The notes beneath the pieces are model-generated. The model saw nothing but the letters and a program-made list of their open reading frames with translations, did not search any database and was not told the origin of the DNA. The position numbers and the translations under genes are program-made. From Patescibacteria group bacterium (GTDB lineage Bacteria > Patescibacteriota > Microgenomatia > Levybacterales > UBA12049), in assembly GCA_026004395.1 (NCBI GenBank), contig BPJB01000001.1, forward strand, positions 327,343-391,342: a stretch of 64,000 nucleotides of DNA. Direction: 5' to 3'. Below are positions 38,764-64,000 of this stretch, one piece after another. Position 1 is the first letter of the stretch, and every line of letters begins with the position of its first letter.

Positions 38764-40024
38764 AATCTTCTGTCCAAATGACATACAAATATGATTTAAT
38801 ATCTCCTTCGTGAAAAAGGATAGGATTACCACTGCGGACTCTTTCTGCTGCCTCTTGTTTTTGTTTATCTAATCCTCCGCCTGTTGTTTTGATCCAAAAT
38901 TCTTTTGTATTGTAGTAAGCATAGAATATCCAAAGAAAAACAAGAGGCAACAAAAGGTAAGGAAATTTCTTAAGTAATTTTTGTTGCAGATAAATAAGAA
39001 CAAAGATTACTAGTGGTGCTTGTAGGAGAAAATAATAATCAGAGATAGGACCTGCATAGATAGTGAAAAAAATAACTGGAATCAAAAACCACGGTAACAT
39101 AAGAAGCCCGATAAGTTTTTTAGTTTTATCTTTTTCAAATAAAAGAACAAAGCCAAAAAGAAATGGTATTACATATTGCAAAATTTTCCCCAGAGAAAAG
39201 AATATAATCAGCTTAAACTGCACAAAAGCATCTGTAAGTCTTAGCAGGAAAAAACGTAAATGAAATCCGTGCATATAATGTTTGATAAAGTCTGAGTATT
39301 TATAAAACTCTCCGTGTGAACTTTTGAGATCAAAGATTAGGGTAGGTATGAGGAAAAACGCAGCAATAGCAAAGCTTCCACATAAGAGGAGAAAATTTTT
39401 TATATTTTTTCCGAAAGGAAAAAGAGATAAGAGTATAATTGGAGGAAGAAATACGGCAGTGAAATGAAGATGAAAAAAAAGTCCTGTTAGAATTCCAAGA
39501 AGAATATACCAGTACTTTCCACCGCCTGTTCTAATACGAAAAAGAGTATAGAATAGCAAAATTGATGTAGCAGGCACCAGTGAAACATTCCAGGGAATCT
39601 GATTTTGTTTAATAATATAATTGCTTGTGCCATAGAGAAAGACTGCAAAGATAGCTGCTTTTTCTGAAAAAAGTTTTTTAGCTACTAGATAGAGAGTAAC
39701 AAATGTAATTATATTAACAACAATCGTAAAGTATATAGAAGCAACAGGATCCAGTTTTGTAAGCGCAAAAAAAGGTGCTAGAAGGTAAAAATACAATGGT
39801 CCAAGATGCATATTACCGATACCTGTTTTGGGTCCATCAAGTACGAGCATCCCTTTGAGAATGTCGCGTACTTTCCATGCGTCTCGAGCCTGATCCCATC
39901 CAAATGCTTTATCAGGATAGGATTCAATACCATAAAATCTAAGATACAGTCCCACTGTTAGGATAAATAAAAAAGCAAAAAAATATTTATGTGGAGAAAT
40001 TAGTTTAGAATAAAATTCACTCAT
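38747..40024 (-). CDS. GT-C-type (ArnT/PMT-like) polytopic membrane glycosyltransferase
   Basis: 425 aa with many TM helices. First loop contains WDQARD. Topology resembles the ArnT/PMT_2 family. Confidence 0.5.
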   Translation of the reverse strand: MSEFYSKLISPHKYFFAFLFILTVGLYLRFYGIESYPDKAFGWDQARDAWKVRDILKGMLVLDGPKTGIGNMHLGPLYFYLLAPFFALTKLDPVASIYFTIVVNIITFVTLYLVAKKLFSEKAAIFAVFLYGTSNYIIKQNQIPWNVSLVPATSILLFYTLFRIRTGGGKYWYILLGILTGLFFHLHFTAVFLPPIILLSLFPFGKNIKNFLLLCGSFAIAAFFLIPTLIFDLKSSHGEFYKYSDFIKHYMHGFHLRFFLLRLTDAFVQFKLIIFFSLGKILQYVIPFLFGFVLLFEKDKTKKLIGLLMLPWFLIPVIFFTIYAGPISDYYFLLQAPLVIFVLIYLQQKLLKKFPYLLLPLVFLWIFYAYYNTKEFWIKTTGGGLDKQKQEAAERVRSGNPILFHEGDIKSYLYVIWTEDSTKKN

Positions 40025-40055: not shown

Positions 40056-41577
40056 ATGCCAATACTTAAGAAAAGAAAAGTTGAGTTGTTTTTGGTAGTT
40101 TTCCTTTTTGCTCTTTACACTTTTTCACGACTTGGGGCTTTAACAAATATACCAATCTTTACTGATGAGGCAATTTATCTGAGATGGGCGCAGATCGCAG
40201 AATCTGATGCCAATTGGCGATTTATTTCACTTACCGATGGCAAACAGCCGCTTTTTATTTGGTTGACAATGCTAGCGATGAAAATTATTCCTGATCCCTT
40301 GATAGCGGGTAGAATGATCTCTGTATTGTCTGGACTTCTAACAGCTATTGGCTTATTTTTTCTTTCCCGAGAAATATTTCAAGAAAAATGGATAGGAATT
40401 ATTGCCGCAGGATTGTATGTTATTTATCCTTTTGCTCTTATTTATGATAGATTAGCTCTTTATGATTCTCTTGTTGGAACATTTGCAGTCTGGAGTCTTT
40501 ATGGTACAGTCTGTTTGGTGAGAGCTCTTCGTTTGGATGTTGCACTTTTGTTAGGTCTTGCTATAGGAGGTGCGGTATTGAATAAAACAAGCGGTTTTTT
40601 TCAATCTCTATCTTCTCCCTTTTGCATTACTTATTTTTGACTGGAAAAAGAAAAATCTAAGAGGTAGATTGATTCGTTTTATTCTCCTTTGTGGGGTAGT
40701 AGCATTAATGAGCTACGGAATGTATTCTATTTTACGTTTATCACCGTTTTTCTATATTATCGAGGAAAAGAATGCTGTGTTTGTCTACCCTTTTAGGGAT
40801 TGGATCCAACATCCTTTTGCGTATTTTTGGCAAAACTTAAGGGCACTTGTTGATTGGTTGGTAGCATATATGGGATTACCTTTAATATTATTAGCAGTAG
40901 GGTCTCTGTTTTTGAAAAAGACACTCATAAAAGAAAAGATTCTTTTAATAGTATGGTTTGTGGTGCCATTTATTGCTCTTGCATTGTTCGGAAAGACACT
41001 TTATCCTCGCTATATTTTTTTCATGACTCTTTCTCTTCTTCCACTTATAGCATATTCTATCTACATTCTTTATCGAAGACTAAAAGAAAAACCCTACCTT
41101 AGATTATTTTTTATTGTTTTAGCAATTTTTTATTCTTTTGTTTCGTCAATACTCATTCTTGCGGATTTCAAAAATGCGCCTATACCATCAGCAGACAAAT
41201 CACAATATCTTACAGGCTGGCCATCAGGTGTAGGTATTCCTGAGACAATTAATTTTTTTCAACAAAAAGCAAAAAAGGGTGAGATCTTTATTGGCACAGA
41301 AGGTACGTTTGGTCTTTTGCCATTTGCCTATGAATTATACTTTGTCAAGAATAAAAACATAACTGTTAAAGGATACTGGCCAATTGGGCCTGAGATTGAT
41401 CCAGAACTTGTAAAAATGAGTTTATCAAAACCTACCTATATGGTGTTTTATCAAGATTGCGTTCCTTGTGAAGCAAAAGGTATCGCACCTAGTACTTGGC
41501 CGCTTAAGAAAATTATGCAAATTCCAAAAGTTGAGAAAAATACTTATTTAACAGTTTATCAAGTACTACCACAATGA
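40056..41577 (+). pseudogene. GT-C (ArnT/PMT-like, DE-motif) membrane glycosyltransferase interrupted by a frameshift in a T7 homopolymer (pseudogene or sequencing error)
   Basis: ORF 40056-40640 contains TDEAIYLRW (DE motif). ORF 40669-41577 is in a different frame. The joined reading ...LNKTSGFF/FNLYLLPFALLIFDWKKKNLRGRLIRFILL... is continuous across the T-run at 40595-40601. Confidence 0.6.
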
Positions 41578-45604: not shown

Positions 45605-47056
45605 ATGCAAGAAATTGATATTGCCACAATTACAAGGCGTTCCATTCATGGCGTTTTCGCTTTGGTCTCCAGGACGTTTCTGATACAGATAGTTATGCAG
45701 TTGGTGAGTTTTCTGCTTACGATCTATCTTCTTCCTGAGGAATATGGAATGTTTTATATTGTGTCAGCAGCAATTGCTTTTCTTGCTTATTTTTCTGATA
45801 TTGGATTGGCAGCTGCTTTAATTCAGAAAAAGGAAGAGTTAACAAAAGACGATTTAAGAACTACATTTACAATACAGCAAGCACTTGTATTAAGTGTTTC
45901 AATTATTGCTCTTATTTTTACCGATGCTGTGGGTAAATTTTATAACCTCAATAATGAGGGAAAGCTCCTTTATCAGGTACTTATCTTCTCCTTTGTTTTA
46001 TCATCGCTTAAGACAATACCTTCCATACTTCTTGAGAGAAAACTTCTTTTTCAAAAATTAGTCATTCCTGAGATTGTTGAGACAGTTGCGTTCAGTGTGA
46101 CGGTTTTAATTTTGGCAATACAAAACTTCGGAATAGCAAGTTTTACCTATGCAGTTTTCCTGCGTGGTTTACTAGGATTACTTACAATGTATCTTATTGC
46201 TCCGTGGAGACCGCAGATAGGTTTTTCACTAAATGTGGCGAAGCGTTTACTTGCATTCGGTGTTCCATTTCAGGCAAATAGCATCCTAGCTTTGTTGAAA
46301 GATCAACTTCTTGTAATTTATCTAGGTAAAGCGTTATCACTTACGCAAGTGGGATATATTGGGGTAGCCCAAAAATTAGCATACACACCCCTTAGACTTT
46401 TTATGGATAATATTATTCGTATAACCTTTCCATCTTTTTCTCGATTGGCTGAGACTAAATATCTTGGTAAAGCCATAGAAAAAACACTATTTGCAATTAG
46501 TGCATTTATTTTTCCTGCATCTGCTGGCATGGTGATTCTTATGCCTTATTTTATTCGCGTTTTTCCCAAATATGAAAAATGGGAGCCTGTTCTTCTTTCA
46601 CTAACATTTTTTTCTCTAAACGCAATTCTCTCTAGCCTATCAACGCCTTTGACCAATGCTCTCAATGCCATCGGAAAGATCAAGATAACATTGCATCTTA
46701 TGATTTTTTGGACACTAGCGACATGGATTCTGATACCCATTTTTATTGGAATTTTTGGATTTGATGGAGTGTCTATTGCCTCAGCTTTTATTTCAGTAAG
46801 CGTTGTTGCAGTGGTTTTTCTTGCGAAACAATATATTCCTTTCAGTATCCTTTCCGTAATTTATCCGCCATTTTTAGCAACAATTATTATGGCCATCTCT
46901 CTTTTTTTTATTTCAACGTATATTATCACTTCCCTGCAAACTTTGATTCTTGCTATGCTAGTGGGAGGAGGAATATATTTATTGACCCTTTTTCTGATAG
47001 CAAAGAAGCAAATTCTATCAGATTTAGAATTAATTAGAGCTAATTTAAAAAGGTAA
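45605..47056 (+). CDS. Wzx/MOP-superfamily polysaccharide/oligosaccharide flippase
   Basis: 483 aa with about 14 TM helices, typical polysaccharide-biosynthesis-protein composition. Lies inside the glycosyltransferase cluster. Confidence 0.65.
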   Translation: MQEIDIATITRRSIHGVFALVSRTFLIQIVMQLVSFLLTIYLLPEEYGMFYIVSAAIAFLAYFSDIGLAAALIQKKEELTKDDLRTTFTIQQALVLSVSIIALIFTDAVGKFYNLNNEGKLLYQVLIFSFVLSSLKTIPSILLERKLLFQKLVIPEIVETVAFSVTVLILAIQNFGIASFTYAVFLRGLLGLLTMYLIAPWRPQIGFSLNVAKRLLAFGVPFQANSILALLKDQLLVIYLGKALSLTQVGYIGVAQKLAYTPLRLFMDNIIRITFPSFSRLAETKYLGKAIEKTLFAISAFIFPASAGMVILMPYFIRVFPKYEKWEPVLLSLTFFSLNAILSSLSTPLTNALNAIGKIKITLHLMIFWTLATWILIPIFIGIFGFDGVSIASAFISVSVVAVVFLAKQYIPFSILSVIYPPFLATIIMAISLFFISTYIITSLQTLILAMLVGGGIYLLTLFLIAKKQILSDLELIRANLKR

Positions 47057-50348: not shown

Positions 50349-51065
50349 ATGAAATTATCAATCATCATTCCTGTATTTAATGAAGAAAAAACAATTGCGG
50401 CTGTAATCAAGAAAGTTTTAGCAGTTCAACTGGACAATGCTGACAAAGAAATAATAGTCGTTGATGATTGTTCTTCTGATAGGACAGGAGAGATATTAAA
50501 CAATCTTCGTCAAATTTATAAAGATCTTAAGATTTATACACATAAAAAAAATAAGGGTAAAGGTGCAGCTTTAAGAACAGGCTTCGCTTATGCGACCGGT
50601 GATTATTGTATTATTCAGGATGCTGATCTGGAATATGATCCAATGCAGATTGGATCTCTTTTCAAACCGATTGTAGAAGGTGAAGCCCAAGTAGTTTATG
50701 GAACACGTTTAAAAAGATTGCCTCACTTGCGGGGTGAGGAATCAACGCCGCGTTTTCTTCTCCATTATTTTGGCAATCGATTCTTAAGTTTGATAACCAG
50801 TATGCTCTATTTTCAATGGATTACTGACATGGAGACGTGTTATAAAATTTTCCCTCGTAAGTTTATTCAGAGAGTTAATTTAAAAGGAGAAGGTTTTGAA
50901 TTTGAACCTGAGATTACTGCAAAATTGATTAAGCATGGATATAAAATAAAAGAGATTCCTATTACTACCACACCTCGAGGTTATAACGAGGGTAAAAAAC
51001 TTCAAACATTTCCTGAGGGAATAAAAGCTTTTTGGACTTTGATTAAATATCGTTTTGTTGATTGA
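50349..51065 (+). CDS. GT2 polyprenyl-phosphate sugar synthase (GtrB/Dpm1/ArnC-like)
   Basis: LSIIIPVFNEEKTI...IIVVDDCSSDRTG...NKGKGAALRTG...IIQDADLEYDP. Followed 10 nt later by a family-B GT-C gene. Confidence 0.8.
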   Translation: MKLSIIIPVFNEEKTIAAVIKKVLAVQLDNADKEIIVVDDCSSDRTGEILNNLRQIYKDLKIYTHKKNKGKGAALRTGFAYATGDYCIIQDADLEYDPMQIGSLFKPIVEGEAQVVYGTRLKRLPHLRGEESTPRFLLHYFGNRFLSLITSMLYFQWITDMETCYKIFPRKFIQRVNLKGEGFEFEPEITAKLIKHGYKIKEIPITTTPRGYNEGKKLQTFPEGIKAFWTLIKYRFVD

Positions 51066-51074: not shown

Positions 51075-52739
51075 ATGTTAAATAAATTGATACGTAATAC
51101 CGCACTTATCCTCGTTTTTCTTACTTTTGTTGGTGGATTATTGAGAGTCTATAAAATAGGAGAAATTCCTGTGGGATTTCACGCGGATGAAGCCTACTTT
51201 GGCTATAACGCATACTCTCTATTGAGAACAGGAAGAGATATTACAGGACATTTTATACCTATTCACCTGGAATCATTTCTTTATAGTCCGGGGGGGTATT
51301 CGTATCTGATTATTCCATTTCTCGTTTTTTTTGATTTAAGTCCAGTTGCAGTTAGACTTCCAGCTGCAATAATTGGTACAGCAACAATAATTCTGACATT
51401 TTTTTTAGTACGCATGATTTTTTCTCAAGAAAAATACAGTGTGCTGGTCGCATTAATCACCACTTTTCTTCTCACTATTAGTCCTTGGCATATTAATCTC
51501 TCTCGTGCTTCAGCTGAAAATGTCATTGTAGTATTCCTTATAATTCTAAGTGTGTTTTTGTATTTGAAATGGGTTGAGAATCAACGATTTTTTATTCTTT
51601 TGTTTTCCTTTATTTTTTTTGCAAGCACGTATCTTTTTTATCAAGCTCCGCGTGCTTTCCTCCCTCTTTTTATTCCTTTTTTAGTATTGTTCTTTTCTCG
51701 TCAATTGAAGCCAAAGAAATATTTTTTGATAGGCATTCTATATTTATTTTTCATAGTCTTGCCGCTAGTCATTATTGTCACCTCTGATACCCTATCCTAT
51801 AGATTAAGGATGTTGTCCGTATTTAGTTATCCGAAAACTCAAGCATTAATTGATGAGGCAATAGTAGAGGATGGTTTATCATCTCAGCCTGTTATCTTGA
51901 CACGCGTATTTCATAACAAGATTGTTGGTTATACTTCAGAGATATTTGATACTTATATGCAACATTTATCTTACGGTTTTTTATTTAAAGATGAAGGTTT
52001 GCCAGCGCGTTATCGTGTGCCAAATATGGGATTACTTTATTTATTTGAGCTTCCTTTAATTGTTGTTGGATTGTACTCTATAGTACGATTGCGCAGTAGG
52101 GGTGGATTGTTATGTATTGTGTGGGTTCTTTTGGGATTTGTTGGGTCTGCTTTAACATATGATGATGTTCCCAATCTTCAGAGGACTCTTCTTGTTTTGC
52201 CTGCACTTCAAGTTGTGGGTGGATTTGGCGCTGTGACACTTTTTAAAAATTTACCTTCAAAGGTGATTCCGATTGTGGTTTTAGTGAGCATTATCATAGT
52301 GCTTTATTTTGTTTCCTATTATCTTCATCAATATTTTATCCATCAGATTATTCATAAGCCAATTTATCGTCAGGAGGGGTATAAAGAGTTGGTCAGAGTG
52401 GTAAATAAATTGCTCCCTCAATATCAATATGCAATGATAACAACTCGTCAGGCATCTCCTCTAATTTTTTTTCTTTTTTATTCTCAGTATGATCCAGCAA
52501 AATTCCAACAAGAGATTAAAAAAGAAAAGCACAATTTCCTTATTGAGGATTTTGGAAAAGTAAGCATAGATAAATATAGATTTTTTACAGATGCGTGTTT
52601 TGATAAAGACAAATTAAAAGAATCGATTTTATATGTTGATCTTGGATCTTGCGATGTTCCTTATTCTCAAGTACATGTTCTAAAAGAAATTAAAAGAGGT
52701 GATGCAAGTATAGTATTCAGGGTGTATGATAAAAAATAA
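51075..52739 (+). CDS. GT-C glycosyltransferase, PMT/ArnT-like (GT39/83), paralog family B
   Basis: First-loop motif GFHADEAYFGYNAYSLLRTGRD...HLESF, the DE motif of PMT_2. 554 aa with a C-terminal soluble domain. Confidence 0.7.
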   Translation: MLNKLIRNTALILVFLTFVGGLLRVYKIGEIPVGFHADEAYFGYNAYSLLRTGRDITGHFIPIHLESFLYSPGGYSYLIIPFLVFFDLSPVAVRLPAAIIGTATIILTFFLVRMIFSQEKYSVLVALITTFLLTISPWHINLSRASAENVIVVFLIILSVFLYLKWVENQRFFILLFSFIFFASTYLFYQAPRAFLPLFIPFLVLFFSRQLKPKKYFLIGILYLFFIVLPLVIIVTSDTLSYRLRMLSVFSYPKTQALIDEAIVEDGLSSQPVILTRVFHNKIVGYTSEIFDTYMQHLSYGFLFKDEGLPARYRVPNMGLLYLFELPLIVVGLYSIVRLRSRGGLLCIVWVLLGFVGSALTYDDVPNLQRTLLVLPALQVVGGFGAVTLFKNLPSKVIPIVVLVSIIIVLYFVSYYLHQYFIHQIIHKPIYRQEGYKELVRVVNKLLPQYQYAMITTRQASPLIFFLFYSQYDPAKFQQEIKKEKHNFLIEDFGKVSIDKYRFFTDACFDKDKLKESILYVDLGSCDVPYSQVHVLKEIKRGDASIVFRVYDKK

Positions 52740-52745
52740 GATGAA

Positions 52746-53669
52746 GTGATTATGGAAAAAGTGATAATTTCAATTATTGATTATAATGGACGTGACGATA
52801 CAATTGCCTGTCTTCGCTCTATTGAAAAATTAGTTACGGAAAATTTCTTCTTTGAGGTAGTTGTCATTGATAATTATCCTCAAGGGTTCTTTTCTTTGGG
52901 AGATGAGAAGTTTGATATTCCAATTACGATAATTAAGACTCCCAAAGCTTTGGGATTTGCTGGAGGACAGAATAAAGGCATAGAGTATGCTTTGGAACAG
53001 AACGCAGATTATGTTCTTGTATTAAATAATGATACGCTTGTAGATAAAAATCTTTTGCGTGAGTTAGTGAGAGCTAGCAGGGAGGATAAAAAACGCGGTG
53101 CAATTGTTCCTAAAATTTATTTTGCAAAAGGTCATGAATTCCACAAAGATCGTTATACAAAAGATGAATTAGGACGGATCATCTGGTATGCAGGTGGCAG
53201 AATGGACTGGAACAATATTTATGGTATTCATATTGGAGTTGATGAAGTAGATCATGGACAGTATGACCATGAATCAGAAACAGAGCTTTTGACAGGATGT
53301 TGCGTACTATTAACAAAAGATGTTTTGAATAAAGTAAAAGGATTTGATAACAGATATTTTTTGTATTATGAAGATGCTGACCTTAATGAAAGGATAAAGA
53401 AAGCTGGTTTTCTCATTTGGTATAGGCCAAGTGCACTACTTTGGCATGTAAATGCAGCATCAACAGGAGGATCAGGATCTCCAACTCAGGATTATTATAT
53501 TAGCCGCAATAGACTCTTATTTGGTATGAAGTATGCTAGTTTAAGGACAAAAATCGCATTGATAAGAGAAAGTTTGCGTATTCTTAGATCAGGGAGGGAA
53601 TGGCAAAAAAAGGGAGTAATTGATTTTTATCTTAGACGGCTTAAAAATGGGAGGCTTTATAATGATTAA
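52746..53669 (+). CDS. GT2 glycosyltransferase, RfbF/WbbL (rhamnosyltransferase)-like
   Basis: VISIIDYNGRDDT...VIDNYPQG...LVLNNDTLV...GCCVLLTKDVLNKVKGFDNRYFLYYEDADL is the typical GT2_RfbF-like pattern. Confidence 0.75.
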   Translation: MIMEKVIISIIDYNGRDDTIACLRSIEKLVTENFFFEVVVIDNYPQGFFSLGDEKFDIPITIIKTPKALGFAGGQNKGIEYALEQNADYVLVLNNDTLVDKNLLRELVRASREDKKRGAIVPKIYFAKGHEFHKDRYTKDELGRIIWYAGGRMDWNNIYGIHIGVDEVDHGQYDHESETELLTGCCVLLTKDVLNKVKGFDNRYFLYYEDADLNERIKKAGFLIWYRPSALLWHVNAASTGGSGSPTQDYYISRNRLLFGMKYASLRTKIALIRESLRILRSGREWQKKGVIDFYLRRLKNGRLYND

Positions 53670-54411
53670 GCTGACAGGTATAGTCATAGCCAAGAATGAA
53701 GAAGAGATGATTGGAGAATGCCTTGATTCTCTTGCTTTTTGCGATCAAATAATTGTTGTGGATAACGCTTCATCTGATGGAACAAAAAAAATTGCCAAGC
53801 AAAAAGGGGCAAAAGTTATTAGTACAGAAATTAACAGTTTTTCTGAACTTAGGAATTTGGGTTTGGCAAAGGCACGATCAGAATATGTTCTTTACATAGA
53901 TGCAGATGAGCGTGTATCAGATGCACTGTATAATGAGATTTTATCCATTGTTTATAAGAATGATAAAAAAATAAGCGCGTATCGTATTCCTAGAAAAAAT
54001 TATTATTTTGGAGATCACCCTTGGCCGTATATAGAAAAACTGGAAAGGTTGTTTCGTAAAAAGAGCCTCAAAGGATGGTTGGGTGTGTTGCATGAAACAC
54101 CTCAGGTAATTGGTGAAGTAGGAGAGTTAGAGTCTCCAATTCTCCATTATACTCATCGTAATCTAGAAGAAATGGTCAATAAAACCAATGTTTGGTCTGA
54201 TGTTGAGGCTAGGCTTCGATTTGAACAACATCATCCCAAAATGACTTGGTGGAGATTTCCTAGAGTGATGTTTACTGCATTTTGGGATTCATTTGTTAAA
54301 CAAAAAGGTTTCCAAGCAGGTACAATAGGTTTACTCGAGAGCGTATATCAGGCATACAGTATGTTTATTACCTACGCGAAGCTTTGGGAGTTGCAAGAGA
54401 TAAAACAATAG
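53662..54411 (+). CDS. GT2 glycosyltransferase (paralog of 47058-47978)
   Basis: LTGIVIAKNEEEMIGECLDSL...IIVVDNASSDGT...YIDADERV. The ATG at 53662 has a GGGAGG SD 8 nt upstream and overlaps the upstream stop (ATGATTAA). The ORF track gives a longer 53620 start. Confidence 0.75.
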   Translation: MIKLTGIVIAKNEEEMIGECLDSLAFCDQIIVVDNASSDGTKKIAKQKGAKVISTEINSFSELRNLGLAKARSEYVLYIDADERVSDALYNEILSIVYKNDKKISAYRIPRKNYYFGDHPWPYIEKLERLFRKKSLKGWLGVLHETPQVIGEVGELESPILHYTHRNLEEMVNKTNVWSDVEARLRFEQHHPKMTWWRFPRVMFTAFWDSFVKQKGFQAGTIGLLESVYQAYSMFITYAKLWELQEIKQ

Positions 54412-54651
54412 CTATTTTTTGAGCATTCTAAACCAGTCACTAATTTGATCAACAGTAAGTTTATTCTTGGCAAAGCGCAAAAGGAAAATAATCTCTAAAA
54501 CACCCAAAGTATTAAGAATAAGCATAGCAATAAACCAATATTTTTGTTCTCCTTGTGCTGCTCTCCATAAAGCCAATCCTTTCCAAAGGATAGCCCATAA
54601 GAAGATAAAATAAAATATAAAAGGTGGTATATTGCCAATAGATGGGTTCAT
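54412..54651 (-). CDS. Small two-TM membrane protein (hypothetical)
   Basis: 79 aa. FIFYFIFLWAILWKGLALWRAA...WFIAMLILNTLGVLEIIFLL has two hydrophobic helices. It is antisense-embedded between a GT2 and a GT4 gene. Confidence 0.4.
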   Translation of the reverse strand: MNPSIGNIPPFIFYFIFLWAILWKGLALWRAAQGEQKYWFIAMLILNTLGVLEIIFLLRFAKNKLTVDQISDWFRMLKK

Positions 54652-54706
54652 TTTCTATATCTTAACATACATTTTGATAAATAGCAAAAATTGCTACAAT
54701 AAAAGA

Positions 54707-55780
54707 GTGAAAATTGGAATTTTTTCTCCATATCTTGATACTATGTCTGGAGGTGAGAAATATATGCTGACGCTTGCAGATTGCCTCTCTCCTGAGCATG
54801 AGGTAACGATTTTCTGGGACAAAGATAAAGAAAAAGACATTAGAGAAAAAGCCAAACACAGATTCAATTTCGATTTAGCTAATATAACATTCACATCTTC
54901 GATTTTTAGCAGCAGTATATCTTTTTTTGAGAGATTTTGGGAAAGTAAGAAATATGATCTGATCTTTTTTTTGAGTGATGGTAGTATTCCTTTTCTTGCA
55001 TGTCCGGTTATTCTCCATTTTCAATCTCCTGTTGAGTGGGTAAAAGTATCCTTAAAGACAAGAATAAAGATGTCTTTCATCCATGAAGTAATTTGCAACT
55101 CATTTTTTACCAAGTATTATATTGATCGCAAATTTCATCTACAAAGTAAGGTTGTCTATCCACCTGTAGATTTTTCTGCTGCCAAAAAAAATCTTAAAAA
55201 AGAAAAAATTATTCTTAATGTAGGCCGTTTTGGGATAAACCATGCAGGATCTAGTTTTAAAAAACAAGATATTCTTGCCGAAGCATTTGCTGATCTCATA
55301 GAAAACGGCATAAATAATTGGAAGCTTGTTTTTGTTGTGAGTTTGAGAGATGAAGATAAAAAGAGTTTTAATTCTTTTCAGAAAAGATACAACTTTCTTC
55401 CTATAAAATATGTTATCAATCCTTCCAGTGAAGAACTTTGGGAGTATTATTCTAAAGCAAGTATCTATTGGCATGCGTCAGGATATGGTGAGAATTTGGA
55501 TGAACATCCGGACCGCGCAGAACATTTTGGGATCTCAACAGTTGAAGCTATGGGATCGGGTGCAGTACCTTTAGTGTATAATGCAGGCGGGCAAAAAGAA
55601 ATTGTCACCCACCAACATACAGGATTTTTGTGGAATTCTACCCAAGAGTTAATTGCCTATACCCAAAATCTTATATCAGAACCAACTCAATTAGCAGATC
55701 TTTCTCAGGCAGCAAAACAAGCAGCATATAAATATCAAAAGGAAGAGTTTTGTAAAAATATCAAAAGTATTCTTCCATGA
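54707..55780 (+). CDS. GT4 (GT1-type) glycosyltransferase
   Basis: N-terminus VKIGIFSPYLDTMSGGEKYML. C-terminal motif EHFGISTVEAMGSGAVPLVYNAGGQKEIV...TGFLW. GTG start at 54707 is assumed; the ORF track extends to 54632. Confidence 0.75.
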   Translation: MKIGIFSPYLDTMSGGEKYMLTLADCLSPEHEVTIFWDKDKEKDIREKAKHRFNFDLANITFTSSIFSSSISFFERFWESKKYDLIFFLSDGSIPFLACPVILHFQSPVEWVKVSLKTRIKMSFIHEVICNSFFTKYYIDRKFHLQSKVVYPPVDFSAAKKNLKKEKIILNVGRFGINHAGSSFKKQDILAEAFADLIENGINNWKLVFVVSLRDEDKKSFNSFQKRYNFLPIKYVINPSSEELWEYYSKASIYWHASGYGENLDEHPDRAEHFGISTVEAMGSGAVPLVYNAGGQKEIVTHQHTGFLWNSTQELIAYTQNLISEPTQLADLSQAAKQAAYKYQKEEFCKNIKSILP

Positions 55781-58068
55781 AACAAAAATATCTTGCGCTA
55801 CTCATAGTTTTTATTGTTTCTCTATTCTTTTATCCTTTGTTTTTTCAAGGAAAGCTTCCTGTGCCTGCTGATACTATTGTTGGACTTTACCATCCTTTTA
55901 GAGACCTTTACTCTGGGGAGTATCCTAATGGTATTCCCTTTAAGAATTTTTTAATAACAGATCCTGTTCGACAGCAGATTCCTTGGAGATTTATTAGTTT
56001 GGAGATAATTAAAGAGAAAGAATTGCCACTTTGGAATCCTTACGCATTTTCAGGCTATCCACTGCTTGGTAATTTTCAGTCTGCGGTATTTAATCCTCTA
56101 AATATTTTTATTCTTTTGCTGCCGTTTTGGTTAGGATGGACTATTATTGTTTTGCTTCAGCCAATTCTTGCCGCCTTGTTTATGTTTTATTATCTTGCTT
56201 ATCTTCGGTTGACAAAAATAGCATCTTTTTTAGGAGGAGTGACGTTTGCTTTTAGTGGTTTTATGATTGCCTGGCTTGAGTGGGGGACACTGGGATATGT
56301 GATAGCATTTGTCCCTCTGATTTTATTGTCATTGGAGCAACTTATTAGGCAATGGACAAGAAGATGGGCTGTTGTTTTCACTCTTTCAGCTATGATACAA
56401 CTATTTTCCGGTCACCTGCAGGTGTGGTTTTATACATTTATTTTAATCAATCTCTATCTTCTTTTCCGTTTATATTTTTCTCTAAAAGAGCAACGGGAGA
56501 AAATCACATTTTTGTCTTTTCTAAACGCATATAAGTCCTTTCTTTTGCTTATAATTTTTGTTTTAGCAGCGACATCTATTCAATGGATACCAAGTTTAAT
56601 ATTAATTCTTCAAAGCGGTAGAGATGCAGATCAGGTATTCTGGCAAAATCAAGGCTGGTTTATCCCCTGGCAACATTTGATTCAGTTTGTTGTACCCGAT
56701 TTCTTTGGTAATCCAACAACACTTAACTATTGGGGTGTTTGGAATTATGCAGAGTTTGTAGGATATATTGGTCTTGCTCAATTGATTTTTGCGACTACTG
56801 CGATAATCAATCTTATCAGAAAAAATTATTATGTATCGTTTTTTGCGGGTGTTGTTATATTTTCACTAATTTTTTCTCTTCCTACGCCTCTTGCTGTTAT
56901 TCCATTTACTCTTGATATTCCCTTACTTTCAACATCCCAACCAACAAGACTTCTTTCTTTAATAGACTTATCTTTAGCTATTTTAAGTGCTTTCGGATTT
57001 AATTTGCTAATTGAGAAAAAACAAAAAAAAATTATTACCTCTTTTATATTGACTGGTTTAATTTTGGCATTTCTTTGGTTATTTGTGAATCAATTAATTT
57101 TTAAATTAATAAATATTGATAAAGTAAATCTTTTGGTTGCAAAGAGAAATCTTATTTTCCCAACAGTTATTTTCCTATCGGTGTCTTTTGCGTTTGTTTT
57201 ATTAAATTCAGTAAAAAGATCCTTGATTAGAAATATAGTGATTTTGGGAATTATAATAATTTCTTTGTTTGATTTATTTCGATTCTTTCACAAATTTACT
57301 TCCTTTTCTCCGAAGAATTATCTTTTCCCAACTACCAAAACAATTTCTTTTTTGCAAAATAATCTGCAATATCAGAGATTTATGACTGTAGATGATCGCA
57401 TACTTCCTCCAAATTTTTCAATTTTTTATAAACTGGAAAGTGTTAACGGTTACGATCCGCTATATTTAAGACGATATGCAGAATATATAGCGGCAAGTGA
57501 AAGGGCAAAACCTGATATTTCACCTCCATGGGGATTTAATCGTATCATTACTCCCAAAAGATTTGATTCTCGACTTATTGATATGCTGGGTACAAAATAT
57601 ATTTTGTCTCTTGTGGATCTTAATTCACCCAAAATAAAAAAAATCTTTACAGAAGGAGAGACAAGAGTCTATGAAAATAAAGCAGCGCTACCCAGAGTGA
57701 TACTCGTCAACGATCTTTTTATTGTTCCTACAAAACAAAAGGCTATTGAAAAATTATTTGAGCCATCTTTTAATCCGCAAACCCAAGCAGTAGGTGAATT
57801 TCCTAGTGAGAAACAATCACTAAAAAAACAATATGCTTCAGGAAGTGCAACAATTCTTTATTACTCACCAACAAAAATTATAATAAAGACAGTTCTTAGA
57901 GATGAAGGATTTCTTGTGCTATTTGATCCCTACTATCCAACATGGAGAGTTTTCATTTGTTCTAGTTCGTGTACACAGACTGAGATGATCAGAACAAACT
58001 TTCTTTTTAGAGGGGTTGTTGTTCCGGGTGGTGAGCATACTATAGAATTTAGAAATAATATTTTTTAA
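55777..58068 (+). CDS. Large polytopic membrane protein (about 763 aa), putative GT-C/YfhO-like glycosyltransferase
   Basis: About 14 TM helices in the N-terminal 500 aa. Extracytoplasmic loop motif PADTIVGLYHPFRDLY. C-terminal soluble domain. Overlaps the upstream GT4 stop. Confidence 0.45.
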   Translation: MKQKYLALLIVFIVSLFFYPLFFQGKLPVPADTIVGLYHPFRDLYSGEYPNGIPFKNFLITDPVRQQIPWRFISLEIIKEKELPLWNPYAFSGYPLLGNFQSAVFNPLNIFILLLPFWLGWTIIVLLQPILAALFMFYYLAYLRLTKIASFLGGVTFAFSGFMIAWLEWGTLGYVIAFVPLILLSLEQLIRQWTRRWAVVFTLSAMIQLFSGHLQVWFYTFILINLYLLFRLYFSLKEQREKITFLSFLNAYKSFLLLIIFVLAATSIQWIPSLILILQSGRDADQVFWQNQGWFIPWQHLIQFVVPDFFGNPTTLNYWGVWNYAEFVGYIGLAQLIFATTAIINLIRKNYYVSFFAGVVIFSLIFSLPTPLAVIPFTLDIPLLSTSQPTRLLSLIDLSLAILSAFGFNLLIEKKQKKIITSFILTGLILAFLWLFVNQLIFKLINIDKVNLLVAKRNLIFPTVIFLSVSFAFVLLNSVKRSLIRNIVILGIIIISLFDLFRFFHKFTSFSPKNYLFPTTKTISFLQNNLQYQRFMTVDDRILPPNFSIFYKLESVNGYDPLYLRRYAEYIAASERAKPDISPPWGFNRIITPKRFDSRLIDMLGTKYILSLVDLNSPKIKKIFTEGETRVYENKAALPRVILVNDLFIVPTKQKAIEKLFEPSFNPQTQAVGEFPSEKQSLKKQYASGSATILYYSPTKIIIKTVLRDEGFLVLFDPYYPTWRVFICSSSCTQTEMIRTNFLFRGVVVPGGEHTIEFRNNIF

Positions 58069-58071
58069 TTT

Positions 58072-59745
58072 ATGAAAAAAAACATTATTTTTTTGGCAAT
58101 TATTTTCATCGCCATTATTTTTCGTTTCTCTGCATTAGGCAAAATACCAATATCACTTTATTGGGATGAAGCTGCAGTTGGTTATAATGCCTACAGTATT
58201 TTATTAACAGGCAAAGATGAATATGGTAATTTTTTCCCTCTTCTTTTTCGTTCATTTGAAGATTACAAGATGCCTGCATATGTTTATTTGACAACAATTC
58301 CTATTGGATTTTTTGGTCTTAATGAGTTTTCTGTACGATTTGTATCGGCATTTGCGGGAGTGACTGCGGTTTTATTAACTTACTTTTTAACACGATTACT
58401 CTTTATTCAATTTTCCAGTTCTCAAAAGAATATTTTAAAAGAGAAGAGTAATGCAATTGCGCTTCTTGGATCATTCTTGCTTGCAATTTCACCTTGGCAT
58501 CTTCAGTTTTCACGAACTGGATTTGAGGCAAATGTAGCGTTAACTACATTTCTTGCAGGATTTTATTTTTTCTTTAGATCTTTTTTAAATCAGAAATATT
58601 TTCCTTTTGCTTTTTTCTTTTTTACTCTTAGTTTCTATCTTTATAGAAGTATTTTTATTTTTTTACCGGTCGTTTTAATCGGCTTATTAATTATTTTTCG
58701 TAGAGAGCTTTTTTCTTTAGAGCGCAGAGGAAAAACAATTATGACTTTGATAGTGTTTATTATTTGTATAACGCCAATAACTTATGCAGTATTTTTTGGT
58801 CCGGGAAGAGTAAGAGCCGATCAGGTCAGTGTCTTCCGACATTCTCAGGAAGCATTATCAGAAAATTTACAAAAACAACAAGAAGGTAATACTTATATTT
58901 CACGAGTGCTGTATAATCGTCGTATAACTTACGCTAGGATTACAATCCAAAATTATTTATCTCATTTTTCTCCAGCGTTTTTATTTCTTAGCGGTGATGG
59001 TAATGGAAGGCATACTGTTAAAAATATGGGAGTGCTTTATAGGTGGGAGATACCATTTCTCCTTTTGGGATTTTTTCTGATATTAAGAGAAAAGAGCAAA
59101 TTAAGACTAATTATTATACTTTGGATATTTGCAGCACCTCTAGCAGCGAGTCTAGCCACACCTTCTCCTCATGCATTGCGTTCATTAAATATGCTTCCTG
59201 TACCACAGATATTAACTGCAACTGGAATTACTTTTGTTTTCTTTAAGCTGCAAAGAAGATACAGGATAGCCTTTTTTTTGCTGATGATTTTAGTAGTGTC
59301 TCTGTTTTTTAATCAATATTGGAAGGAATATAATTATCATAATACTGTCACAGCTAGTGCTGACTGGGCTGATGGCTACAAACAGTTGGTATCTGAAGTA
59401 CAAAAAAGAGAAAAAGATTATGACAAGATAGTTATTTCTGGATATTATTGGCAGCCTTATATTTATTTTCTTTTTTACACAAGATATGATCCTTACTTAT
59501 TTCAACATTCGGGTAAAAAAGAAAGATTTGGCAAGTATGTATTTGGTGGAACTGAATGGGATAAGGACAGGGGAAGAAGCGAATTACATAATGTTGATCT
59601 TGTAAGGTTTGCAGGTTCTAGGAATATTCTTGTGGCTTTATCTCCATCAGAATATCAAGCACATTCTAATGAACTGCAAAAAATCACAGAAATTAAGAAT
59701 GCAAAAAATGATACTATTTTTATTCTTGGATCGCTGAGGAAATAA
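58072..59745 (+). CDS. GT-C glycosyltransferase, PMT/ArnT-like, paralog family B
   Basis: ISLYWDEAAVGYNAYSILLTGKDEYGNFFPLLFRSFEDYKMPAYVYLT. 557 aa. Confidence 0.7.
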   Translation: MKKNIIFLAIIFIAIIFRFSALGKIPISLYWDEAAVGYNAYSILLTGKDEYGNFFPLLFRSFEDYKMPAYVYLTTIPIGFFGLNEFSVRFVSAFAGVTAVLLTYFLTRLLFIQFSSSQKNILKEKSNAIALLGSFLLAISPWHLQFSRTGFEANVALTTFLAGFYFFFRSFLNQKYFPFAFFFFTLSFYLYRSIFIFLPVVLIGLLIIFRRELFSLERRGKTIMTLIVFIICITPITYAVFFGPGRVRADQVSVFRHSQEALSENLQKQQEGNTYISRVLYNRRITYARITIQNYLSHFSPAFLFLSGDGNGRHTVKNMGVLYRWEIPFLLLGFFLILREKSKLRLIIILWIFAAPLAASLATPSPHALRSLNMLPVPQILTATGITFVFFKLQRRYRIAFFLLMILVVSLFFNQYWKEYNYHNTVTASADWADGYKQLVSEVQKREKDYDKIVISGYYWQPYIYFLFYTRYDPYLFQHSGKKERFGKYVFGGTEWDKDRGRSELHNVDLVRFAGSRNILVALSPSEYQAHSNELQKITEIKNAKNDTIFILGSLRK

Positions 59746-59782
59746 TTTATTGGATAATATAATTAATTATACTAAAAAGAGA

Positions 59783-61423
59783 ATGTTGCAAGATACAAAA
59801 CTAAATATAGTTTTACTAATTTGTATTACTCTTCTAGCAGGAGTGCTTAGATTTTGGCAGATAACTCAAGTACCTCCAAGTCTTTACTGGGATGAAGTCT
59901 CTCAAGCTTATAATGCATATTCTATACTTGCTACAGGCAAGGATGAGCATCAAGAGTTTTTGCCTCTTGCGCGTTTTCAAGCATTTGGTGACTACAAAGC
60001 TCCTGTCAATATTTATCTAACAGTAATTAGCATGTTGATATTCGGCAGAAATGATTTTGCTATTAGGTTTCCATCCGCTTTCTTAGGAACATTGACAGTT
60101 GTGTTGACCTATTTTTTGGTGCGTGAACTTTTTGCAAAATCGTCCTTATCAAAAACCATAGCATTATTTTCAGCCTTCTTGCTCTCAATATCACCATGGC
60201 ATATCCAGTTATCAAGAGCTGCGTATGAAGGGAATATTGCCACTTTTTTTACTGTTAGTTCTTTATTTCTTTTTTTCTACGCTCTCAATAAAAGACCGTG
60301 GTTTATTTTGATAAGTGCAATTAGTTTTGTCATTGCTTTTTATGCCTTTAACGCTCATAGAGTTTTTATTCCACTTTTTGTTTTATTCCTTAGTTTAATT
60401 TTCTTTAGAAAGTTGTGGGGCATAAAAAAACAAGTAATTTTTTCTATATTAATTGGTTTAGTAATGTTGATACCATATATTATTTTCTTTCAGACTCCTG
60501 AAAGCAAACTGCGATTTCAGGAAGTAAATATTTTCTCAGATCTGGAAACAATTAAAAAAGCAAATCAATTAATTGCAGATGATGGATCTACTTTAATTGC
60601 TAAATTAATTCATAACAGGAGAGTTCTTTTCGCAAGGGAATATTTGATTAATTATTTTGATTTTTTTAATCCCAACTATCTTTTTTTTGAAGGGGATATA
60701 AATCCGAGATTTTCGCATCGCTTTAATGGACAACTTTTTCTTTGGATCCTGCCATTTATTTTGGTAGGAATTTATGGTTTGTATAGTATAAAGAATAAAA
60801 CAACTTTAGTGTTATTAGGGTGGATTCTTTTGGCTCCAATTCCTGCAGCTGTGGCGAGGGAAACCCCGCACGCTCTCAGAAGTGAGACATTTATTCCCGT
60901 ATTTGAGATTATCGCGGCTGTGGGTATATCTTTTTGGCTTATTTATTTAAATCATAAAGCAAAGCGTTTCGTGCCAATAATTTTAGTGTTGTTAGGGATG
61001 ATTAGTATCTTTTCTGTTGTGGCTTTTTGGCATAATTATACTGTGCATAACCCTAAAATATTTTCAGCAGACTGGCAGTATGGATACAAAGATGCAGTAG
61101 AGTATATAGATTCTATCGATGATAAATACGATGCAATTTATTTCACAACAGAATATGGCCGTCCCTATATTTATGTTGCCTGGTATGGGAGGATTGCTCC
61201 TGAGGAGTATTGGTCAAAAGCAAATGTAGTTAAAGACTCATTTGGTTTTTATAACGTTTTGAGTCTTGGAAAATATCAGTTTGTTGAAAATCCTCCAGCA
61301 TTTGCAAAAAATAAAGTTTTATATGTTTTTTCAGAAAACAAAATTCCCAAAAACAGTAGAATACTTAAAAAAATATATTTTCTTAATGGAAATATAGCAT
61401 TCGTTATCGCTGAAAACACCTGA
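59783..61423 (+). CDS. GT-C glycosyltransferase, PMT/ArnT-like, paralog family B
   Basis: PSLYWDEVSQAYNAYSILATGKDEHQEFLPLARFQAFGDYKAPVNIYLT. The ORF track starts at a TTG at 59750; the ATG at 59783 aligns better with paralog N-termini. Confidence 0.7.
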   Translation: MLQDTKLNIVLLICITLLAGVLRFWQITQVPPSLYWDEVSQAYNAYSILATGKDEHQEFLPLARFQAFGDYKAPVNIYLTVISMLIFGRNDFAIRFPSAFLGTLTVVLTYFLVRELFAKSSLSKTIALFSAFLLSISPWHIQLSRAAYEGNIATFFTVSSLFLFFYALNKRPWFILISAISFVIAFYAFNAHRVFIPLFVLFLSLIFFRKLWGIKKQVIFSILIGLVMLIPYIIFFQTPESKLRFQEVNIFSDLETIKKANQLIADDGSTLIAKLIHNRRVLFAREYLINYFDFFNPNYLFFEGDINPRFSHRFNGQLFLWILPFILVGIYGLYSIKNKTTLVLLGWILLAPIPAAVARETPHALRSETFIPVFEIIAAVGISFWLIYLNHKAKRFVPIILVLLGMISIFSVVAFWHNYTVHNPKIFSADWQYGYKDAVEYIDSIDDKYDAIYFTTEYGRPYIYVAWYGRIAPEEYWSKANVVKDSFGFYNVLSLGKYQFVENPPAFAKNKVLYVFSENKIPKNSRILKKIYFLNGNIAFVIAENT

Positions 61424-63027
61424 TGAAAAAATACATAATAGTTGCCGTTATTGCATTGATTGGGATAATATCTAGATTTTATGATCTAGGTGATGTTCCA
61501 CCATCTTTGAATTGGGATGAAGTATCTATAGGTTATAATGCGTACAGCGTCTTGAAAACAGGCAGAGATGAATATGGAGAATTGTTACCTCTTTCATTTA
61601 GATCATTTGGTGATTATAAACAACCATTATATGTTTATTTTGCCATTCCATCTATCTTTCTTTTTGACCTAACTCCTTTTGCGGTGAGACTTCCCTCAGC
61701 GCTTTTTGGATCTTTAAGTATAGTTTTTGTTTTTTTTCTAGTTTATGAGCTTTTTTTTACTTCAGCGAAAAAGACTACAATTGCCAGTCTTACTGCCTTA
61801 TTGTACTCAATCTCTCCGTGGTCTATACAGTTTAGCCGTTTTGCTTCTGAGGCTAATGTAGCCTTAAGCCTTACACTCGGTGGAGTATGGTTGGTACTGC
61901 GCGGTACTCGAATAAAAAGTAAATTTATGATTCTTATCTCATTGCTGTTTTTTATCCTTAGCATGTATACCTACCATAGTCACAAAATCTTTACACCGTT
62001 TATTTTGCTGTCAATACTTTGGTTGAGAAAAGATTATTTTTTAAGCAATAAACGCTTTTTGGGAATACTTATTGCTTTGTTTTTTCTTGGTAATATATTT
62101 TGGCTAGTAGATGCAAATACAACACAGCGGGGAAGGAGCGTATTATTGACCTCTGAACAAACGCAACTTCTGGAGCAACCAATAAAATATCTTATAGAAG
62201 ACAAAAAAAATGGTGATATTTTAGGTGTACTGCTTCATAACAGAAGGATAATTTACTTAAAAACATATCTTAAAAACTACCTTTCACATTTTGATCCAAA
62301 TTTTCTTTTAATGATGGGTGATAATGCAAGACATCACGCTCCTGATATGGGAGTAGTATATCTTGTATCTCTACCATTTATAATTTTTGGCTTTTTATCT
62401 TTATGGAAGAGATACAAAAAAGAGGCGGTATTTCTCTCATTGTGGTTGCTTGGTGCGCCTGCAGTATCAGCACTAGCAATCAATGCACCCAGTGCAATTA
62501 GGAGTATGATGTTTCTTCCACTATGGCAGATATTTGCTGCATTTGGGATAATTTCCTTTTTGAGTCTAATTAAACATCAAACATTTAAGTACATCGGCAT
62601 ATTTTTAATTATACTTTTTTATTTTTTGAATATTTTTTATTACTTTCATCAATATTTTGTGCATACCAATAGAGAGTATGCCAGATATTGGCAATATGGA
62701 TATAAAGAGGCAATTGAATATGCATTATCGCTTCCCAAAAACACTCCAATTATTTTTAATCAAGATATTGAGCAAGCGCAAACATTTTATCTATTTTATG
62801 CAAAAGTAGATCCATCTCAATATCTTTTGAATGGTGGATCAAAAAGGATGAGAGATAAATGTTCTAATATAGATAATATTTATTTTGGAGAATGTTTGAC
62901 AAGAATTTCTAGCGGCTTTCTGATAACAGGTAATCCTCCTTCCATTTCTGCCAAAAAAATGAAGACTATTTTGTATCCCAATGGAGAAGAGGCTCTGGCA
63001 ATTTATTTTTTTGCCAAAAAATACTAG
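61423..63027 (+). CDS. GT-C glycosyltransferase, PMT/ArnT-like, paralog family B
   Basis: PSLNWDEVSIGYNAYSVLKTGRDEYGELLPLSFRSFGDYKQPLYVYF. The start overlaps the upstream stop (TGATG). Confidence 0.7.
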   Translation: MKKYIIVAVIALIGIISRFYDLGDVPPSLNWDEVSIGYNAYSVLKTGRDEYGELLPLSFRSFGDYKQPLYVYFAIPSIFLFDLTPFAVRLPSALFGSLSIVFVFFLVYELFFTSAKKTTIASLTALLYSISPWSIQFSRFASEANVALSLTLGGVWLVLRGTRIKSKFMILISLLFFILSMYTYHSHKIFTPFILLSILWLRKDYFLSNKRFLGILIALFFLGNIFWLVDANTTQRGRSVLLTSEQTQLLEQPIKYLIEDKKNGDILGVLLHNRRIIYLKTYLKNYLSHFDPNFLLMMGDNARHHAPDMGVVYLVSLPFIIFGFLSLWKRYKKEAVFLSLWLLGAPAVSALAINAPSAIRSMMFLPLWQIFAAFGIISFLSLIKHQTFKYIGIFLIILFYFLNIFYYFHQYFVHTNREYARYWQYGYKEAIEYALSLPKNTPIIFNQDIEQAQTFYLFYAKVDPSQYLLNGGSKRMRDKCSNIDNIYFGECLTRISSGFLITGNPPSISAKKMKTILYPNGEEALAIYFFAKKY

Positions 63028-63082: not shown

Positions 63083-64000
63083 ATGAGTCTAGCAAAATTA
63101 CCAAGAAAGATTTTTAGTTGGATTAATAAAAGAGAGAATTTATTTCTTGTTGTTTTCTTTTTTATTATTTTTTCAGTATTATTGATTAATACTTTTCATG
63201 AAGAATATCCAGATGAATTCGATAACATCTTGGGTGGTTGGTATATTACCCATGGTATTCCTATTTATACAGGTTTTTTTACACACCATGGACCTGTTGC
63301 TTACTTCATAGCAGCGTTAATAACATTATTGAGTGGAAATTCATTTGTTCTTTTTCGGGTAATATTCTCTCTTGTAATCTTTGTGTATCTATTATGGTCT
63401 TATTCTTATATCAAATCGAGATTTGGAAAAGAAAGAACATATTTTTATCTTATTTTTATAGCTCTTATTTCTCTTGCAGGTAACTATTATTGGTTTCATA
63501 TGTTACTGGCAGATACATTGTCTGCATACTTTTTTGCTCCTGTGATTACTTTACTTCTTCTAGTCACTATCTCTAAAACACCCTTAATAAAAAAAGATAT
63601 AATTATTATATCTATACTGACTGCATTTTCAGTTTTGAGTTCTCTTACATTTATTTATTTTTCAATAATAGTGTATGCATATGCATTATATTGGTATCTA
63701 CAATCTAATTCATTGAAGATTTTTTCGCGCAAAGTCGGAGTGGTTATTCTAATTTTTGCTGCTCCCTATCTATTGTTTTTAACATATCTTCTTGTGACTT
63801 TTAGTTTGCAGGAGTATATATATCAAGGTTGGATATTTAATCAGCGGTATTATGTCTATAACTACCCCCGCCCAGAAGGATCTCTCTCTATCAATCCAGT
63901 TCGCTTTGCAATTGTTATAGCTCATAATTTCTATAACAGCTATTTTACTCTTTTAGAGCAAGTAAAGACTTTTAATCTTAACTTCCCATTAAATATTACG
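63083..64000 (+). CDS. Polytopic membrane protein, 5' part (continues beyond the window); likely another glycosylation-island membrane enzyme
   Basis: An open frame from the ATG at 63083 to the window end has no stop (MSLAKLPRKIFSWINKRENLFLVVFFF...). The six-frame track missed it because there is no in-window stop. Multiple TM helices. Confidence 0.5.
   Translation, partial: MSLAKLPRKIFSWINKRENLFLVVFFFIIFSVLLINTFHEEYPDEFDNILGGWYITHGIPIYTGFFTHHGPVAYFIAALITLLSGNSFVLFRVIFSLVIFVYLLWSYSYIKSRFGKERTYFYLIFIALISLAGNYYWFHMLLADTLSAYFFAPVITLLLLVTISKTPLIKKDIIIISILTAFSVLSSLTFIYFSIIVYAYALYWYLQSNSLKIFSRKVGVVILIFAAPYLLFLTYLLVTFSLQEYIYQGWIFNQRYYVYNYPRPEGSLSINPVRFAIVIAHNFYNSYFTLLEQVKTFNLNFPLNIT

Follow-up and report, generated by a model that had tools for sequence, protein, structure and literature searches.

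Four GT-C glycosyltransferase paralogs of ancient divergence in a conserved gene cluster of a Levybacteria-like genome

Why would a bacterium from a phylum with genomes of ~1 Mb maintain four related membrane glycosyltransferase genes, three of them arranged head to tail? The question is raised by a 64,000-nucleotide stretch from a Patescibacteria group bacterium (contig BPJB01000001.1 of assembly GCA_026004395.1, positions 327,343 to 391,342 of the forward strand), hereafter the window, with coordinates counted from its first base. An earlier note on this DNA had described four open reading frames (ORFs) of about 550 residues as PMT/ArnT-like GT-C enzymes and had attributed the adjacent triplet to recent tandem duplication. 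All four ORFs are present on the plus strand at the positions given there (534-557 aa; here B1 to B4, collectively family B; Table 1). Their description as PMT/ArnT-type GT-C enzymes with a first-loop Asp-Glu holds, on the combined evidence of Pfam PMT_2, a structural model of B3, its Foldseek matches and the conserved residues; the recent duplication does not. B1 to B4 are instead, by sequence comparison, anciently diverged paralogs of one subfamily in an old and conserved arrangement, and the host genome is Levybacteria-like (Microgenomates, within the Patescibacteria/Candidate Phyla Radiation, CPR).

The four proteins are homologous over nearly their full length (BLASTP E 1e-59 to 1e-98), with 27-36% identity between paralogs, and their hydropathy profiles share one layout that ends in a hydrophilic C-terminal tail of 126-140 aa in each copy. 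A first-loop WDEA/WDEV followed by GYNAYS..TG.DE.G...P had been read in all four. This string is complete in B2 and B4; B3 shares their WDE(A/V) and then reads AYNAYS and DEHQE, and the B1 loop (HADEAYFGYNAYS plus TGRDITG) has neither WDE nor the second DE. On alignment, the Asp-Glu pair itself is present in the first loop of every copy, in B1 as ADE rather than WDE. The junctions are as tight as had been described: TGATG joins B3 to B4 as a 1-nt overlap of stop and start, and short gaps lie between B2 and B3 and between B2 and the YfhO-family gene upstream of it (3 nt). The B3 ORF opens at TTG 59750 (557 aa), which would leave 4 nt after B2, and has an alternative ATG at 59783 (546 aa), which leaves 37 nt; the ATG is preferred because homologs measure 537-550 aa and align over 100% of the protein that begins there.

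All four copies pass the gathering threshold of Pfam PMT_2 (PF13231, 26.1 bits), with 32.1 bits for B1, 31.2 for B2, 45.1 for B3 and 27.8 for B4. B3 additionally passes Pfam PMT (PF02366, 46.7 bits), a match not reported for B1, B2 or B4 in the Pfam scan (E <= 0.01), and the same scan found no PMT_4TMC or MIR domain in any copy. The ArnT equivalog NF009784 was not matched, with 20.2 bits for B3 against a cut-off of 567 and no match for the other three. Structurally, the AlphaFold2 model of B3 (52 aligned sequences as input) has a predicted local distance difference test score of 91.8 and a predicted template-modeling score of 0.91. It consists of an N-terminal helix (residues 5-24), a loop whose first helix begins at D37-E38, a helical membrane core reaching to residue ~430, and a soluble alpha/beta domain (435-546) at the C-terminus, where GT39 enzymes have the PMT_4TMC module. 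Significant Foldseek matches of this model in the PDB are exclusively GT-C enzymes: archaeal AglB, eukaryotic STT3 and bacterial PglB (E 4e-8 to 6e-6, template-modeling (TM) scores 0.45-0.53), ArnT (0.53 in both directions, the best mutual score) and fungal Pmt4 (E 5e-4), all with a probability of 1.00, followed by AftA, Pmt1-Pmt2, AftD and EmbA/B. The Asp-Glu pair (D37/E38, B3 numbering) sits just past the first transmembrane helix (5-24) and is conserved in each of the four orthogroups (179 sequences together), as are R95, S137-P138-W139, R145, E149, R244, N278, R366 and G434-Y435. Lys-rich N-termini suggest an N-in topology, with the motif loop predicted to face outward.

B1 to B4 are class-A GT-C enzymes of the oligosaccharyltransferase (OST)/ArnT/PMT type, and family B is a conserved member of this well-known enzyme class by its GT-C fold and Pfam PMT_2. 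As labels, 'PMT' and 'ArnT' describe these proteins at the level of the fold and no further. The earlier note had taken the first-loop Asp-Glu as the catalytic mark of the PMT/GT39 family; the motif is a general GT-C hallmark, found in Pmt and ArnT alike, and therefore carries no GT39 assignment (PMC8698208). GT39 in the strict sense is indicated by one feature in one copy, the Pfam PMT match of B3.

Genomic neighborhood comparison places the divergence of the four copies far back. The order gt2a-B1-GT2-GT2-GT4-YfhO-B2-B3-B4-next GT-C is syntenic in three other contigs, L001 (~86% identity), L002 (~61%) and L003 (~58%; the Candidatus Levybacteria metagenome-assembled genome GCA_016214555.1). 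In a neighbor-joining tree, each copy clusters with its positional counterparts from the other genomes and not with its neighbors in the window, orthologs being 45-87% identical against 24-36% for paralogs. B1 orthologs share 86, 63 and 52% identity in L001, L002 and L003, and B2 orthologs 85, 46 and 45%. A wider scan, limited to a single genome for each species, yielded more than 575 relatives; the best 80 with a specific taxon name are mostly Levy-, Chisholm-, Curtiss-, Gottesman- and Roizmanbacteria. Across the 84 loci compared (L001-L084), a locus of ~21.6 kb holds 1-7 family-B ORFs, in contiguous runs of 1-6 genes, and the 408 within-locus paralog pairs have a median identity of 33% and a maximum of 45%. 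Since no within-locus pair exceeds 45% and orthologs are positional, nothing points to a recent duplication in the window or in the sampled relatives. No DNA-level repeats linking B1 to B4 were found, which makes assembly collapse irrelevant; an assembly artefact in the form of a collapsed or expanded repeat is excluded. Loci such as L013, L033 and L066 carry up to seven family-B genes, always old paralogs (<=45%). The subfamily as a whole comprises 2,923 clusters (50% identity) at E <= 1e-30, and databases already give it a generic annotation.

A B4-like gene lies directly 3' of the B3 ortholog in 68 of the 84 loci, with overlaps that are mostly 1 or 4 nt (modal 4 nt). Co-translation through overlapping stop and start codons had been proposed for the triplet; for B3 and B4 the overlap is kept in relatives and is compatible with translational coupling; B2 and B3 do not overlap. 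Loci of the Curtiss- and Chisholmbacteria type have, in place of B4 and right after B3, a paralog of the type found at 40056 in the window.

Each copy is also individually maintained. Against their L001 orthologs, the ratios of nonsynonymous to synonymous substitution rates (dN/dS) are 0.16 for B1, 0.13 for B2, 0.11 for B3 and 0.15 for B4, values that show purifying selection on all four; orthologs were used because synonymous sites between paralogs are saturated at ~33% protein identity. The most constrained parts of B3 are the first loop (0.06) and the loop region 237-319 (0.05). Between paralogs, conservation peaks in the first (motif) loop (56-62% among B2, B3 and B4), contrary to the reading that the loop sequences had diverged. 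The least conserved are the region 237-319 (27-32%) and the C-terminal domain (21-24%), so that the conserved C-terminal soluble domains described before survive as a hydrophilic tail common to all copies and not as a conserved sequence. Six positions are at least 85% conserved within the B3 and within the B4 orthogroups and yet differ between the two. Three of the six fall at 310-313, in a long non-helical loop (303-319) that reads FSxQ in B3 and HHxP in B4. A functional specialization of the copies is thus a reasonable proposal, as the earlier note had it, but an old one, which these patterns would place in the mid-protein loop and the C-terminal domain rather than in the motif loop.

We consider it likely that B1 to B4 are four non-redundant, anciently diverged class-A GT-C glycosyltransferases that use polyprenyl-phosphate-linked sugars in successive or parallel steps of building a surface glycan, glycolipid or glycoprotein. 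The donor would come from the small GT2 protein gt2a, encoded immediately 5' of B1 and directly 5' of the family-B array in most related loci. Its best NCBIfam likenesses are AglJ, PgfS, PpgS, ArnC and a haloarchaeal dolichyl-phosphate hexose transferase, each an enzyme that attaches a sugar to polyprenyl phosphate, and it is probably a polyprenyl-phosphate-sugar synthase supplying the lipid-linked donor; with this predicted activity, it reproduces the Gtr-type pairing of such a GT2 synthase with a neighboring GT-C. In the proposed mechanism, gt2a would work at the cytoplasmic face, using a nucleotide sugar to charge polyprenyl phosphate with a monosaccharide, and the lipid-linked sugar would be flipped across the membrane. 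On the outer face, each family-B enzyme would then pass the sugar to a different acceptor or position, with the loop Asp positioning or activating the acceptor nucleophile and the conserved Arg residues holding the phosphate. The paralogs would represent successive or parallel, non-redundant steps that build or decorate the product. We infer this two-step logic, in which a GT-A enzyme makes the polyprenyl-phosphate sugar inside and a GT-C enzyme transfers it outside, from the likeness of gt2a and from established precedents, namely Ppm1/Pmt (PMC8698208) and the streptococcal GtrB/PgtC2 and PgfS/PgfM1 systems (bioRxiv 10.1101/2024.05.05.592596).

Several observations weigh against this assignment. 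B3 is the sole copy that was modeled, the fold of B1, B2 and B4 being assigned through homology and a similar hydropathy layout. The Foldseek TM-scores are only ~0.5, so that no specific characterized family stands out as the nearest relative, and neither B3 nor a 52-sequence profile had a significant match when compared by sequence with the PDB (best Pmt4, E 0.3). The gt2a protein scores far below all NCBIfam equivalog cut-offs, and no GtrA/GtcA-family flippase was found among the window ORFs scanned, the only candidates being a Wzx-type MOP flippase and the unclassified 79-aa membrane ORF (Table 1). Finally, many of the related contigs (among L005-L084; third-party annotation assemblies) are titled 'uncultured Gammaproteobacteria bacterium'. 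These titles are regarded as unreliable because the loci are syntenic with those of CPR bacteria (Levybacteria/Microgenomates), and they are probably placeholders or wrong taxonomy labels.

Among the closest known parallels to the proposed donor and transferase pairing are Gram-positive systems (CsbB/GtcA/YfhO, GtrB/PgtC2 and PgfS/PgfM1/PgfM2), in which a GT2 undecaprenyl-phosphate-sugar synthase is encoded together with one or two GT-Cs that act on teichoic acids or Ser/Thr-rich proteins (bioRxiv 10.1101/2024.05.05.592596). The window shares with them the YfhO gene directly 5' of B2. Unlike family B, however, the GT-Cs of those systems belong to the YfhO family and not to PMT_2, and the window combines far more GT-C genes (~14 in 31 kb) with no GtrA/GtcA-type flippase among its scanned ORFs.

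The likeliest alternative is that B3 and B4, possibly with B2, form an obligate hetero-oligomer, their adjacency and overlap reflecting stoichiometric co-production; we regard it as possible but doubtful. The frequent succession of B3 by a B4-like gene with 1- or 4-nt overlaps would fit such a complex, as would the catalytic motif kept in both proteins. Yeast Pmt1-Pmt2 (PDB 6p25) and mycobacterial EmbA-EmbB (7bvf), the latter from the embCAB tandem triplet, are obligate hetero-oligomers, and both occur among the fold matches of B3 as possible precedents by analogy. The embC-embA-embB genes are likewise three paralogous GT-C genes in head-to-tail order whose roles are non-redundant; two of their products form a heterodimer, and EmbA/EmbB match B3 weakly in fold (Foldseek E 0.06-0.13). 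They differ from family B in their size (~1,050-1,100 aa), their large carbohydrate-binding domains and their membership of another GT-C family (Arabinose_trans), and sequence similarity to family B is not detectable. Against the complex, the best 150 representatives, all ~540 aa, include no B3-B4 fusion, another paralog follows B3 in some lineages, and compact CPR operons commonly have stop and start codons that overlap.

That B1 to B4 are true protein O-mannosyltransferases (GT39, orthologs of actinobacterial Pmt) acting on Ser/Thr of secreted proteins, pilins or an S-layer is unlikely. The Pfam PMT match of B3 speaks for it, some ortholog records bear the name 'glycosyltransferase family 39 protein', and a weak profile alignment (E 0.3, not significant) pairs WDEVSQG with FDEVHFG of Pmt4. 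Family B would also share with Ppm1/Pmt and the eukaryotic PMTs the loop-1 Asp-Glu, the combination of a GT-C with a GT2 that makes its donor and, as predicted here, an extracytoplasmic reaction (PMC8698208). In contrast, B1, B2 and B4 pass the generic PMT_2 only, PMT_4TMC and MIR are missing from the Pfam scan, and sequence similarity to PDB entries stops at E 0.3. The fold of B3 is no further from OST and ArnT than from Pmt, the Asp-Glu motif is not specific to GT39 (PMC8698208), mannose-activation genes were not seen beside the array, and family B comprises multiple paralogs where those systems have a single pmt gene.

A bolder version of the heterodimer would make B3-B4 an obligate heterodimeric GT-C at the core of a Microgenomates-specific assembly line of at least ten GT-Cs outside the cytoplasmic membrane. 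This line would build a lineage-specific surface glycan or glycoprotein coat, possibly for attachment to host cells, its structure being tuned by the upstream paralogs, whose number varies (0-5 per genome). We offer this as speculation and think it improbable as a whole.

We give little credence to the proposal that the copies are ArnT-like enzymes that modify the head group of a lipid or lipoglycan, as opposed to a protein or polysaccharide. They do have the size and architecture of ArnT (GT83; ~550 aa, a multi-helix membrane core, a C-terminal outward-facing domain and the Asp-Glu motif), the mutual TM-score of 0.53 is the best obtained, orthologs are named 'ArnT-like' by the Joint Genome Institute, and the GT2 proteins gt2b and gt2a have ArnC-like similarity. 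However, the equivalog model is unmatched, and ArnA/B/D-type genes were not found in the cluster, where generic GT2, GT4 and GT-C genes stand in place of the arn context (ArnA/B/C/D/E/F). The host lineage is a Gram-positive-like CPR group in which lipid A is not expected.

Very unlikely, too, is a non-catalytic role for one or more copies, as scaffolds or flippase-associated proteins like archaeal Agl23. The N-terminal regions of B1 to B3 match TIGR03663 (Agl23) weakly, B1 lacks the Trp and the second Asp-Glu, and the more distant paralog B5 has DQ; but the Agl23 scores of 26-42 bits fall far short of the 126-bit cut-off, all four orthogroups keep D37/E38 and the Arg/Glu set, and the motif loop is among the regions under the strongest purifying selection. 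Recent tandem duplication, or a repeat collapsed or expanded in assembly, followed by fast loop diversification, has only the head-to-tail order and similar lengths of three genes in its favor and can be dismissed on the low paralog identity, the absence of DNA repeats, the same-position orthologs elsewhere, the within-locus ceiling of 45% in 84 loci and a motif loop that is the most conserved region between paralogs.

Table 1. Family-B genes and neighboring features in the window.
Feature	Coordinates	Strand	Description
B1	51075-52739	+	554 aa; PMT_2-type GT-C paralog; HADE, not WDE, in first loop
B2	58072-59745	+	557 aa; PMT_2-type GT-C paralog; YWDEAAVGYNAYS
B3	59783-61423	+	546 aa; GT-C paralog matching PMT and PMT_2; YWDEVSQAYNAYS
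B4	61423-63027	+	534 aa; PMT_2-type GT-C paralog; NWDEVSIGYNAYS
gt2a	50349-51065	+	238-aa GT2; Pfam Glycos_transf_2, E 5e-38; 9 nt 5' of B1
GT2	52746-53669	+	cytoplasmic glycosyltransferase (Pfam); order kept in L001-L003
GT2	53620-54411	+	cytoplasmic glycosyltransferase (Pfam); order kept in L001-L003
GT4	54632-55780	+	cytoplasmic glycosyltransferase (Pfam); order kept in L001-L003
Small membrane ORF	54412-54651	-	79 aa, two-helix; opposite strand in otherwise co-directional cluster
YfhO-family GT-C	55777-58068	+	763 aa; Pfam YfhO 29.4 bits, cut-off 28.5
Next membrane protein, N-terminal part	63083-64000 (window end)	+	weak PMT_2 match, E 1e-3, below cut-off
B5, distant fifth paralog	34675-36426	-	FDQ in place of WDE
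PMT_2-domain GT-C outside family B	38747-40024	-	425 aa; PMT_2 41.4 bits, threshold 26.1
Frame-split PMT_2 GT-C	40056-41577	+	ORFs 40056-40640 and 40669-41577, in different frames
Wzx-type MOP flippase	45605-47056		see text

Beyond the array, the window extends the picture of a locus dense in GT-C genes. The family had been described as four genes; these four are real, and further members lie nearby (B5, the PMT_2 genes at 38747 and 40056, and the GT-C-like gene at 63083). In all, ~14 GT-C genes occupy 31 kb (33063-64000). Eight are of PMT_2 type (B1 to B5, the minus-strand gene at 38747, the split gene at 40056 and the partial gene at 63083), four are PTPS_related/DUF6541-type paralogs (33063, 41574, 43210 and 48607; mutual identity 24-34%), and the remainder are one YfhO (55777) and one GT87 gene (37552). 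Three small paralogous GT2 genes (36797, 44889 and 50349) each adjoin a GT-C gene. A very small genome here gives ~31 kb to these genes and their partner GT2 and GT4 enzymes, and conservation of the cluster core across Microgenomates points to a complex, conserved surface glycoconjugate. To our knowledge, the envelope chemistry of Patescibacteria is essentially unknown, and their lifestyle is probably dependent on cell-cell contact. No literature was found that deals specifically with arrays of GT-C or PMT genes in Patescibacteria, CPR or Microgenomates. The interest of the locus lies mainly in its density of GT-C genes and in the conserved B3-B4 pair. For annotation, the lesson is that the four copies are old, distinct orthogroups that deserve separate names, being neither redundant copies nor assembly artefacts.

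B5 is related to B1 to B4 at 22-27% identity (BLASTP E 1e-9 to 3e-24) and reaches 19.6 bits with PMT_2 (E 1e-3), below the threshold; the protein at 38747-40024 gave no BLASTP match to B1 to B4 at E <= 1e-3. Within the split gene, ORF 40056-40640 matches both PMT_2 and PMT, and single proteins of 496-525 aa in seven related Microgenomates loci align to the two ORFs in order. The split may reflect a pseudogene, an error in sequencing or a gene that is truly split. In at least four of the seven loci, the intact counterpart directly follows the B3 ortholog. The gene following B4, truncated by the window end, encodes 576-580 aa at this position in L001-L004.

Between B1 and B2, the ORF starts TTG 53620 and TTG 54632 overlap their neighbors by 50 and 20 nt, and the true starts probably lie downstream because the orthologs are called at shorter lengths (249 and 369 aa in L001). 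The 79-aa membrane ORF has counterparts at the equivalent position in L001, L003 and L004, annotated there as DUF5652. The position of the YfhO gene 5' of B2 is conserved in relatives. The YfhO-B2 interval contains a 316-aa GT2 in L003 (7344-8294) and a 54-aa GT2 remnant in L002 (8101-8265), against 3 nt in the window; it looks as if a putative donor-synthase gene was lost stepwise in the window's lineage.

Scans for regulatory and RNA elements added little to the account of the array: promoter-like sites were uninformative (65 against 71 expected), the terminator scan gave no intergenic terminator within the array, and Rfam and tRNA scans returned nothing related to it. Upstream of the glycan locus, a GH18 protein with likeness to EndoS-type endo-beta-N-acetylglucosaminidases (25851-27218, plus strand) is followed by a D-Ala-D-Ala carboxypeptidase (27225-28286), and 25851-28286 (plus strand) is thus predicted to encode envelope-remodeling functions. 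The only RNA gene detected in the window is a tRNA-Glu(CTC) at 36573-36646 on the minus strand, between B5 and a GT2 gene.

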